From Candidatus Woesearchaeota archaeon (GTDB lineage: Archaea; Nanobdellota; Nanobdellia; Woesearchaeales; UBA10216): 24,885 nucleotides of DNA. The notes under the pieces were generated by a model. The model saw only the letters and a program-made list of their open reading frames with translations, had not been told where the DNA came from and made no database searches. Each line of letters starts with the position of its first letter. The stretch's first letter is position 1. Location of the stretch: assembly GCA_016180085.1 (NCBI GenBank), contig JACPBX010000020.1, positions 1 to 24,885 on the forward strand. The letters run 5' to 3'. The position numbers were made by a program, and so were the translations under genes. Shown here one piece after another: positions 908 to 2,521 of the stretch.

Positions 908-1921
908 ATGTATGACCTTGTGATAATAGGAGGAGGTCCTGCTGCGCTTGCAGCAGCGGTCTATGCCGCAAGGCAGAAAATAAGCTTCGTCATGGTTGCT
1001 GAAAACATTGGCGGCCAGACAGCGATAAGCGCGGACATAGAGAACTACCTGGGCTTCCCGGCAACAAATGGCCCGGAACTCAGCGGATTTTTCGAAAAGC
1101 ACATCAGGAAATACGGCATTGACGTGAAAGAAGGCGAAAAGGCCATTGATGTCAAAAGAAGCGGCAAAAACTTTATCGTGAAGACAGCTGCGGCAGCTTA
1201 CGAGACAAAAACAGTTCTTATCGCCTCAGGCAAAAAGCCCCGAAAGCTGAACATTCCGGGAGAGGAAAGGCTTTACAGGAAGGGAGTCACGTATTGCGCG
1301 ACTTGCGATGCGCCGCTCTTTTCCGGAAAAGATGTCGCAATAATCGGAGGAGGAAACTCGGCGATGGATGCTGCGCTCCTGGCAGAAAGATACTCCGGCA
1401 GGGTTTACATTATAAACATAAATCCGGAGCTAAGGGGCGATGCCGTAATGCTTGACAGCATAAAAAGGAGCAAAAAAATCACAATTTTCAACAGCTCACT
1501 GACAACTGAGATTCTTGGCGACAAAACAGCAAGCGGCGTAAAGTTCAGGCAGGGCGGCAGCAATAAGGGCACAAATCGGCTGATGCCGATTGTGCATTCC
1601 GCCCAAAGGCGGAATTGCACTGCTGCGCCCTTATCAACCCTCGGCGGAAACGAAAAAACAATAAGCGTCCAAGGCATTTTTGTGGAAATCGGCTACATCC
1701 CAAGCGTTGACTTCGACCACCTGACGGAAAAAAACAAGTGGAATGAAATCACGATCCATGAGGAAAACTTCATGACAAACCTCACCTCAGTCCAGGGCAT
1801 TTTCGCTGCTGGCGACGTCACGGACATTCCTGAAAAGCAGATAAGCGTTGCCGCAGGCGAGGGCGTAAAGGCAATCCTGAGCGTGTTCAAGTATCTTGGG
1901 AGCGCGATGCAGGGATACTAA
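908..1921 (+). CDS. trxB: Thioredoxin reductase (FAD/NADPH disulfide oxidoreductase) with a 30-aa in-frame insertion
   Basis: YDLVIIGGGPA FAD motif, GVTYCATCD redox CxxC, VAIIGGGNSA NADPH motif, GIFAAGDV; probable start ATG 908. Confidence 0.93.
   Translation: MYDLVIIGGGPAALAAAVYAARQKISFVMVAENIGGQTAISADIENYLGFPATNGPELSGFFEKHIRKYGIDVKEGEKAIDVKRSGKNFIVKTAAAAYETKTVLIASGKKPRKLNIPGEERLYRKGVTYCATCDAPLFSGKDVAIIGGGNSAMDAALLAERYSGRVYIININPELRGDAVMLDSIKRSKKITIFNSSLTTEILGDKTASGVKFRQGGSNKGTNRLMPIVHSAQRRNCTAAPLSTLGGNEKTISVQGIFVEIGYIPSVDFDHLTEKNKWNEITIHEENFMTNLTSVQGIFAAGDVTDIPEKQISVAAGEGVKAILSVFKYLGSAMQGY
1553..1647. mobile_element. Candidate miniature palindromic insertion in trxB (85 bp + 5-bp GGCGG direct repeat)
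   Basis: GGCGG at 1553-1557 and 1643-1647 (90 nt apart); removal restores QGGNEK. Internal IR ATAAGGGC/GCCCTTAT encloses two bulged hairpins. Confidence 0.6.
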
Positions 1922-1940
1922 ACATGAAAAAGAAAGAAAA

Positions 1941-1978
1941 GGCAGAAAAAGTCTCTGCCTCAAGGGCCGACCCCTCAT
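1941..1978 (+). pseudogene. Degenerate partial copy (D-arm + variable arm) of the tRNA at 2164-2275
   Basis: GCAGAAAAAGTCTCTGC matches 2173-2189 at 16/17. AAGGGCCGACC..TCAT matches 2211-2227. No anticodon stem, acceptor stem or T-arm is recognisable. Confidence 0.6.
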
Positions 1979-2163
1979 TGTTTTAACTAAGAGTAGTAAC
2001 TAATATTTAACACTTTCTATTTTGCCGTAAAATTTCCTCAAATTCCTGGAATTTTTGAAAGATCTTCAATAAGACTCAAAAATATTTCAATTGTGATGGA
2101 GGAATTACGATATTTTCGGGCAAAGGCATATCAAATCAGAGGCATCTTAAATGACAGGGGATT

Positions 2164-2275
2164 GCCGCGGATGCAGAAACAGTCTCTGCGCCAGCCTCAG
2201 AAGCTGGTGAAAGGGCCGACCTTTCATGCGGGTGCAAACCTGTGCCTAGGCGCAGTGTAACTCCCGCCCGCGGCG
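2164..2275 (+). tRNA. Atypical type II tRNA, anticodon CAG, Ser-like body, 23-nt BHB intron at 59/60 (2239-2261)
   Basis: Acceptor GCCGCGG/CCGCGGC + G73; D-stem GCAG/CTGC; anticodon arm CCAGC-CTCAGAA-GCTGG; variable arm TGAAAGG/CCTTTCA; T-stem GCGGG/CCCGC. A canonical BHB splices to give T-loop TGCAAAT. Mature length 89 nt before CCA. Confidence 0.75.
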
Positions 2276-2306
2276 TCCCCATATTCCTTAAGAAACTGCA
2301 GCAACA

Positions 2307-2316
2307 TTTTTAAAAA
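2307..2316 (+). promoter_or_regulatory. TATA box for tRNA-Gly
   Basis: TTTTTAAAAA ~25-34 nt upstream of the tRNA 5' end at 2341. Confidence 0.55.
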
Positions 2317-2340
2317 GATAACTCGAACAACAACATTGTC

Positions 2341-2521
2341 GCGTCGGTGGTCTAATGGTATGACCTCAGCCTTCCACACAATCTTTTCCTCGCCTGCGGG
2401 CGAGCAAAACCCAAATCGGCAGCAGCCGATTGGGCCCAGTCGACGAAAGTCGACTTGGGGCTTGACCAAAAACGAGCTGTGACGAAAGCTGATGGTCCGG
2501 GTTCGATTCCCGGCCGGCGCA
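2341..2521 (+). tRNA. tRNA-Gly(TCC) with 110-nt intron at 37/38 (2377-2486)
   Basis: GCGTCGG/CCGGCGC-A acceptor, D-loop AATGGTA, TCAGC-CT TCC A^A-GCTGA anticodon arm, T-arm CCGGG-TTCGATT-CCCGG. Relaxed BHB (central CTTC/GACG with one mismatch, inner ACA/TGT). CCA not encoded. Confidence 0.93.

Follow-up and report, generated by a model that had tools for sequence, protein, structure and literature searches.

A double-hairpin repeat family at two sites, a trxB-like gene and a tRNA-Gly(UCC) intron, in a Woesearchaeota genome

The window analysed here is a stretch of 24,885 nucleotides (nt) from a Candidatus Woesearchaeota genome (assembly GCA_016180085.1, contig JACPBX010000020.1, positions 1 to 24,885 of the forward strand), and its gene content is housekeeping genes only. 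Two forward-strand genes concern us: a trxB/AhpF-like thioredoxin-disulfide reductase gene (trxB, 896..1921), which is an intact open reading frame (ORF) by its translation and hosts an insertion, and a tRNA-Gly(UCC) gene (2341..2521). Both contain a pair of small bulged hairpins, and an earlier note on this DNA had proposed that one family of small palindromic elements invaded the protein gene and the tRNA intron alike. We compared the genome of the window (G000; ~1 Mb, 998 kb in the assembly) with the whole genome of a second species of the genus (G005; ~86% nucleotide identity), within a genus sample of ten genomes.

In trxB, hairpin 1 (1570..1594, on either strand, by reading, unit scan and folding) is CACAAATCGGC-tgat-GCCGATTGTG; in the tRNA gene, it is CCCAAATCGGC-agca-GCCGATTGGG (2410-2434, forward strand, by direct reading). 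The two share the six-pair stem ATCGGC/GCCGAT under unlike loops, and their second foot pair is A-T in trxB and C-G in the tRNA copy. Abutting hairpin 1 at both sites is a second hairpin of the form CA-stem-NAAA-stem-TTG, which reads CA-TTCCGCC-caaa-GGCGGAA-TTG at 1595-1617 in trxB (the feature runs on either strand over 1595..1620, its foot using the CAC at 1618-1620, by the same three lines of evidence) and CCCA-GTCGAC-gaaa-GTCGAC-TTGGG at 2435-2459 in the tRNA gene. Direct reading bears out every one of these features as the earlier note had described them. One extra A lies in the 5' arm of hairpin 1 and one extra T in the 3' arm of hairpin 2, and both strands therefore fold alike: folded as DNA, all four strands give two bulged hairpins each, with z-scores of -6.0 to -7.2.

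Alignment of the DNA with five same-genus orthologues (G008, G001, G004, G007 and G006), all of them empty, shows about 87 extra in-frame nt (29 codons) in trxB at 1559..1645 on the forward strand, with boundaries that are ambiguous by a few nt because of a flanking near-repeat (GGCGGCAGCAAT / GGCGGAAAC). Most of this insert is an outer palindromic repeat, CAATAAGGGCAC ... GCGCCCTTATCAACCCTC (1561..1642, forward strand), and in its loop sits the 48-nt double-hairpin element, or doublet, of the CA-footed subtype (1573..1620, forward strand), inserted at GCAC^TGCTGC of CAATAAGGGCAC^TGCTGCGCCCTTATCAACCCTC. Empty paralogous copies of the outer repeat read GGGCAC^TGCTGCGCCC; copies that lack the doublet are found at G005 C11:896, C44:15640 and C41:1515 and at G000 C29:39183, and the composite of outer repeat and doublet occurs again at G005 C13:14129. 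In the trxB insert, one repeat is nested in another of a different kind. Among solved relatives, AhpF and TrxR match best (E 1e-62); the translation retains the CATC redox motif, and outside the insert the ORF is intact. Residues 220-249 have no counterpart and fall between residues 431 and 434 of AhpF (1hyu), and the match to the solved structure places the insertion point at a surface turn that links two strands in the NAD(P)H domain. The 87-nt composite is in frame and free of stops (predicted peptide ...GTNRLMPIVHSAQR...), and we infer that it is translated as a 29-residue loop at the tip of a beta-hairpin.

Two further observations concern trxB. The 9-mer AAATCGGCT of hairpin 1 (1573-1581) recurs ~110 nt downstream (1686-1694) in native VEIGY codons that are present in the orthologues; this may be chance or may hint at targeting assisted by homology. 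Moreover, the last ~700 nt of one G005 contig (C56; locus L010, G005:C56:26828-29357) are 100% identical to the trxB of the window despite the 86% genome average and lack 139 nt (window 1545-1683), that is, the whole insert together with 14 nt on its left side and 38 nt on the right, leaving a frameshift; the palindromic insert may have been deleted imprecisely, or the stretch may be a variant in the population or an assembly artefact at the contig end.

The tRNA-Gly(UCC) gene is matched by the Rfam tRNA model (RF00005) at 2341-2521 with 48.4 bits. ARAGORN in default mode finds no tRNA in the window; in intron mode only, it places a gene at 2341-2522, labelled Ser(tga), with an intron of 110 nt. 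The anticodon TCC comes from hand reading of the arms, as do exon 1 (2341-2376), the 110-nt intron (2377-2486) and exon 2 (2487-2521). Within the intron lies a 50-nt doublet of the CC..GG-footed subtype (2410..2459, forward strand), which is missing from orthologous and paralogous introns. The orthologous introns of G008 and G007 both read ...GCAAAAA^GCTTGACCAAAAA... (in another excerpt, ..GCAAAAA^GCTTGACC..), with the doublet of G000 exactly at the marked point, and a paralogous intron of G000 (C41:25685-25735) has the same body and layout, also without the doublet. On the 5' side of the doublet, the older intron body comprises a T-run, a GC hairpin and an A-run (2378..2409, forward strand, by alignment with G008, G007 and G004), and on the 3' side a GCTTGACCAAAAACG tail and a closing UGUG helix (2460..2486, forward strand, by alignment and fold). 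This body is a hairpin-plus-tail repeat, itself a favoured target of doublets. The doublet of tRNA-Gly(UCC) is an insertion into an older, repeat-derived intron, which it enlarged and did not create. No canonical bulge-helix-bulge was seen at the splice sites in the minimum-energy fold; the doublet would leave with the intron at splicing.

Both elements have relatives throughout the genome. A general scan of G000 with the pattern CA-A-stem(5 or more)-loop-stem-TG returned 75 units, 40 of them forming 20 head-to-head doublets whose units lie 2-4 nt apart, compared to 16-33 units and not one doublet in each of 20 whole-genome dinucleotide shuffles. The exact stem pattern has four forward matches in the 998-kb genome and none for a reversed control. 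A chance origin of the matched hairpins, which the earlier note had named as the outcome that would undo its proposal, is excluded by these controls. G005 has 42 doublets, and solo units exist beside doublets.

The basic unit is a hairpin of 21-25 nt with a conserved foot NN-CA / TG-NN, a single obligatory extrahelical A, a conserved stem base A/G-TCG and a variable tip. Units usually come as head-to-head doublets of 48 or 51 nt, whose fold is the same on both strands. Subtypes are set by the outer foot bases. The CC..GG subtype, to which the tRNA copy belongs, has a 4-nt spacer and the consensus CCCAARTCG-n-CGAYTGGGCCCAGTCG-n-CGACTTGGG; the TG/CA/TG, CA/TG/CA (trxB copy) and CG/CG/CG subtypes have a 2-nt spacer common to both feet. 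In every subtype, the foot bases leave both hairpins with a paired foot of 4-5 bp.

To avoid circularity, we also gathered units through the anchors CAA-R-TCG ... CGA-Y-TG alone, leaving the inner part unconstrained. At least two further inner pairs were formed by 95 of 120 such units, with 19 different inner stems, compared to 7.6 units when inner parts were shuffled and 22 when 5' and 3' halves were swapped between copies. Among anchor-defined hairpins, 94 are bulged and two unbulged, so that the strand-symmetric bulged geometry noticed at the two sites is real and near-invariant. An alignment of 24 CC-footed doublets has six stem pairs with double-sided changes, among them A-T/G-C beside the bulge and G-C/T-A in hairpin 2, a number that none of 500 shuffles reaches (a partly circular test); the 100% pairing in this alignment is partly built in because the copies were chosen by a perfect-stem rule. 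When one mismatch is allowed, four units among 50 doublets are mismatched, all of the G-T type. In Rfam searches, only the tRNA passes; a P24 match at the copy on C1 (25.8 bits against a threshold of 100) was taken as spurious. One TG-footed doublet of G000 (L004:1475-1563, C41) has an extra 46-nt hairpin pair between its two hairpins where its G005 orthologue is a plain doublet, a case of nesting within the element itself.

Twelve pairs of filled and empty sites display a discrete insertion of 48-51 nt. Five doublets are filled in G000 and empty in G005 (in genes for a GT4 glycosyltransferase, IF-2/aIF5B, an intein and a class-V aminotransferase, and in one nested copy), six are filled in G005 and empty in G000, and the edges are sharp in both directions. 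CC-footed copies have clean edges without duplication, in two cases with identical flanks (GCGAAA^AGCGG and GGAAAA^AGAGG); they insert after an A-run, 25 of 31 being preceded by AA or AG. For the TG-, CA- and CG-footed copies, the empty site holds one TGC, GCAC or CG (a single TGC at all four TG-footed empty sites) and the filled site holds the motif at both ends, which can be read as a 2-4-bp target duplication or as insertion beside a motif that completes the foot. Favoured targets include loops and arms of other small palindromic repeats, giving rise to nested composites, and such nested copies are matched by paralogous empty hosts. At two sites filled in both species, flanks and feet are kept while stems and loops differ at most positions, which suggests hot spots that receive insertions repeatedly or have their copies replaced. 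Copies occur on both strands relative to host genes and in intergenic DNA. A composite of hairpin-plus-tail repeat and doublet in G000 (L030:1460-1620, C3:6040-6200) stands directly before a small Cys-rich gene and is flanked by two diverged copies of the gene start (ATGAAATGCGAAGTCTGC / ATGAAATGTGAAATTTGC).

The doublets are close to neutral with respect to reading frame. Their length is a multiple of three (3n), mostly 48 or 51 nt, in 45 of 62 copies (73%), including 30 of the 43 outside ORFs, and a copy leaves on average 5.32 of its six frames open, compared to 3.46 +/- 0.14 for shuffles of the same copies and 3.40 for random genomic 50-mers. Long ORFs span 19 of the 62, and 15 of these 19 are 3n and stop-free. 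Beyond trxB, five hosts were checked, namely the class-V aminotransferase, IF-2/aIF5B, an interdomain linker of the GT4 glycosyltransferase, the intein and an ORF on C2; Pfam identifies the first four, whose G005 orthologues are empty, and has no match for the last. ORF-embedded copies are probably translated and not spliced, because 3n length and freedom from stops matter only under ribosome read-through. These data bear directly on the possibility that the trxB insert is a bulge-helix-bulge mRNA intron, spliced by endonuclease before translation and related to the tRNA intron. The insert flanks do pair into a helix that joins its ends, archaeal splicing of cbf5 pre-mRNA is known (PMC2738675) and the same element sits in a true intron 800 nt away. 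However, the predicted RNA fold is a continuous outer helix with two 1-nt-bulged hairpins and has no bulge-helix-bulge in the insert, nor the motif of a 3-nt bulge, 4-bp helix and 3-nt bulge at its edges; the insert, like those 15 ORF-embedded copies, has a length and an open frame that would serve a purpose only under translation; across the family, stops are avoided in each of the six frames; and the insertion point is a surface turn. We regard this mRNA intron as very improbable.

Other tRNA genes carry the repeat as well. In the tRNA-Gly(GCC) gene of G005, a 104-nt block made of the hairpin-plus-tail repeat and a doublet interrupts the T-loop between GGGTTCGAA and TCCCGG, and the G000 orthologue has identical exons and lacks the block (L063:13585-13900 on G005 C4 versus L040:1420-1600 on G000 C29). 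At L041:1440-1580 (G000 C30:2012-2152), a whole doublet lies in the T-loop of a sequence resembling a T-arm and acceptor 3' part (CCGGGTTCAAG ... TCCCGGGCCCGGCGCA); ARAGORN finds no tRNA there even when the doublet is removed, so that a complete tRNA with a clean T-loop intron was not established, and the site may be a fragment of a tRNA or one half of a split one. At L046:3560-3800 (G000 C41:25690-25930), a doublet follows the 3' end of a tRNA and is itself followed by a near-duplicate of that end (CCCCGCGGCGGCCCT / CCCCGCGACGGCCCT). For G000 as a whole, Rfam gives 17 tRNA matches, 15 above the gathering score, and ARAGORN in intron mode gives 23, most with long introns; many of its tRNA genes are probably hidden by intervening sequences built from repeats.

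On a rival reading, the doublet is not selfish DNA but a functional RNA module, for example a signal for protein binding or processing, which selection maintains in transcripts and tRNA introns. Its hairpins are perfectly kept, with covariation, stable folds are predicted in the pre-tRNA, and copies are enriched in or beside tRNA genes (G000 C7, C29:50613, C35:13486, C41:25826 and C30). Against an RNA role, copies lie on both strands, between genes and in five further unrelated ORFs, and the orthologous genes work without the doublet; pairing at the level of DNA would account for the strand symmetry and for the scarcity of G-T pairs, and 3n length and six-frame openness are irrelevant to an RNA signal. 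We consider such a module very unlikely.

The family is restricted to one genus of groundwater Woesearchaeota. A 16-mer spanning the junction occurs in all ten genomes of the genus, with 1-32 matches each, and was not found in 15 genomes from 11 sister genera of the family; across the order, about 200 sampled genomes gave one match. Searched as a single unit, the pattern matches 23 times in G000 and not at all in 120 other genera. When one genome of each prokaryotic species was scanned (596 Gb), full doublets turned up on contigs that bear the title Candidatus Woesearchaeota (isolates NC_groundwater and nzgw), and the remaining ones were at two loci aligning to G000/G005 and on two contigs binned as 'uncultured Methanosarcinales archaeon' (CAZBFZ010000082.1 and CAZBFZ010000001.1; L179 and L197). 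These two are probably mis-binned Woesearchaeota DNA, judging from their 72-82% identity to G000/G005 over kilobases. Bacterial matches to the 16-mer are chance matches without hairpins, and of the viral contigs, 13 match the 16-mer and none carries a full doublet.

Taken together, we consider it probable that both sites in the window hold a DNA repeat that is non-autonomous, competent for insertion and specific to one Woesearchaeota genus, in line with the earlier proposal of a single palindromic family, which gains support from the members elsewhere and from relatives in which both sites are empty. The family is best read as an archaeal REP/REPIN-like or Rickettsia palindromic element (RPE)-like element. 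By analogy, the bulged base and the conserved foot would let a protein recognise the hairpin DNA: a nuclease or recombinase acting in trans would read the two and move the element, much as irregular hairpins are recognised in the REP/RAYT and IS200/IS605 systems on which this step is modelled. Copies would persist where they are harmless, and the 3n bias and six-frame freedom from stops would allow them to survive in a gene-dense 1-Mb genome.

Several results weigh against this reading. Gain and loss are polarised by several outgroups at trxB and tRNA-Gly only; for the other ten polymorphisms the comparison covers two genomes, and precise deletion could account for them. The 2-4-nt repeats at the flanks of three subtypes could stem from target duplication or from a structural rule for the foot. 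Copies are diverse, 77 of 92 units being distinct, and show no sign of a recent burst from a single master copy. As to an enzyme, no mobilising protein was found: PF01797 (Y1_Tnp) and PF07282 (TnpB) have no match in G000, and all-against-all comparison within G000 and G005 yielded no multi-copy family of transposase-like ORFs. A search for unit(+) ... unit(-) pairs 150-4000 nt apart gave a single match, which brackets the S13-S4-S11 ribosomal genes, and no gene is bracketed by units other than this ribosomal operon and a signal-peptidase-like gene. The orientation of copies was not associated with GC or AT skew in the surrounding sequence (p>0.29; 33-40 oriented copies, depending on the interval over which skew was taken), skew on short contigs being a weak proxy. 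Finally, all genomes are incomplete metagenome-assembled genomes (67-92% complete), and a single-copy enzyme could be missing from the data for that reason. A 220-aa ORF between two doublets (G005 C78) was considered as the mobilising enzyme and rejected: it has no Pfam match, and by eye its SDSM and GD..N motifs suggest a signal peptidase and not a nuclease.

A narrower version of the insertional repeat holds that the doublets are of REPIN/BIME type or derived from IS200/IS605, with a Y1 HUH transposase (RAYT or TnpA) moving the hairpins as single-stranded DNA, as the earlier note had suspected. The near-invariant irregularity of the stem, the resemblance of the inverted doublets to REPINs and the insertion of the CC-footed subtype 3' of a short motif without duplication all suit such an enzyme, RAYT and TnpA being known to recognise irregular hairpins and foot-adjacent guide bases (PMC3479197), and the K07491 type is reported to be the sole transposase KO (KEGG orthology group) with strict matches in Nanobdellota proteomes (bioRxiv 10.64898/2026.05.13.725050). 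However, PF01797 is found in two of the ten genus genomes, as an IS200/IS605-type gene in G002 and a weak match in G005, and not in the copy-rich G007 (32 junction copies, 92% complete), G001, G008 or G000. These genes score as IS200/IS605 and not as RAYT, the RAYT model NF047646 giving 19.5 bits (cut-off 80), and no units lie beside them. There is also no GTAG/CGTC tag and no orientation bias relative to skew, and the bulges sit on opposite arms of one strand whereas the ends of IS608 are like-oriented. The HUH link is not supported so far, and we judge it unlikely.

A bolder extension of the insertional repeat would make the doublets a self-propagating archaeal replicator, moved by a hairpin-specific enzyme that is not of the HUH type and made frame-neutral by evolution, with nested repeats seeding new tRNA introns; the 104-nt T-loop intervening sequence of the G005 tRNA-Gly(GCC) gene would be an example of such an intron. 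We put this forward tentatively, as a possibility about which we remain rather doubtful. If it were true, the doublets and the other nested hairpin repeats of this lineage would together supply the raw material of new tRNA introns.

The implications extend beyond the two genes. A 2026 preprint calls the arrival of archaeal tRNA introns an open question; here, intron sequence is seen being added by a genome-wide repeat, a 50-nt block having enlarged the tRNA-Gly(UCC) intron, and in the sister species a block built from repeats interrupts the T-loop of tRNA-Gly(GCC). The 3n, six-frame-open design is a way for selfish DNA to survive in a genome of 1 Mb that has hardly any spacer. In practice, doublet inserts break tRNA finders (ARAGORN in default mode) and add spurious loops to protein models. 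The near-invariant bulged base would, by the same analogy as above, be a feature by which a protein recognises the element. Small palindromic repeats are well studied in bacteria (PMC3116915, PMC3733652, PMC3479197), and our literature search found no description of such a palindromic repeat family in DPANN archaea; the family is clearly insertional and, as far as this search shows, undescribed for archaea, although the kind of element is known.

Elsewhere in the window, a 76-aa ORF at 501-731 with many CxxC pairs and a lysine-rich tail has no Pfam match and resembles a small zinc-ribbon protein.

Among known systems, REP/BIME/REPIN sequences come closest in behaviour. They too are imperfect palindromes of 20-40 nt in tens of copies (PMC3116915, PMC3733652, PMC3479197), head-to-head dimers 1-5 bp apart predominate, and stems carry alternative complementary bases. 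REP dimers are likewise nested in target palindromes and lie in some cases in frame inside genes, the Rickettsia RPEs among them (PMC3733652). In the REP/RAYT system, the stem irregularity is a protein-recognition feature whose correction abolishes binding, and foot bases guide cleavage (PMC3479197). The RAYT gene of such a system is single-copy and usually has REPs at its flanks. By contrast, the aligned Woesearchaeota copies lack GTAG/CGTC and have feet NN-CA / TG-NN, their irregularity is a single extrahelical A/T at the foot, their lengths are tuned to 48/51 nt, their host is an archaeon and no cognate RAYT was found in the genus genomes. REPs are essentially extragenic, whereas about a quarter to a third of the copies here lie in ORFs and several in tRNA introns. 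The Woesearchaeota family works like REP dimers yet departs from the features that define REP/REPIN-RAYT: it has no tag and is not extragenic, and no RAYT was found.

Miniature derivatives of IS200/IS605 share irregular-stem hairpins at both ends, and one Woesearchaeota subtype may resemble them in its insertion beside a short specific motif without duplication. They differ in that most genomes of the genus have no TnpA, that no strand bias was detected where an orientation locked to the replication strand would be expected, that the hairpins are mirror images on one strand and that three subtypes have 2-4-nt flanking repeats; no full-length relative with tnpA/tnpB bounded by unit ends was found among the Y1 loci of the genus or in a TnpB search of G000.

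The RPEs, as PMC3733652 summarises them, are palindromic repeats that lie in frame in protein genes, and also in RNA genes, with the peptide tolerated as an extra loop. Such behaviour is found here too, as in-frame palindromic inserts that relatives lack in trxB, GT4, IF-2, the class-V aminotransferase and the intein. By comparison, the Woesearchaeota element is much shorter, and its doublet geometry, tRNA-intron habitat and archaeal host are new. Sequence homology to RPE families is unlikely because the Woesearchaeota family is restricted to one archaeal genus.

Lastly, families of transposed tRNA introns have been described in Thermoproteales (Fujishima et al. 2010, as cited in bioRxiv 10.64898/2026.10.13.758758). 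These are related sequences in different tRNA introns and at non-canonical positions, comparable to the 104-nt T-loop block in the G005 tRNA-Gly(GCC) gene. Set beside them, the Woesearchaeota unit differs as a generic, genome-wide repeat that also occurs outside tRNAs and, in the gene analysed here, enlarged an intron that already existed.

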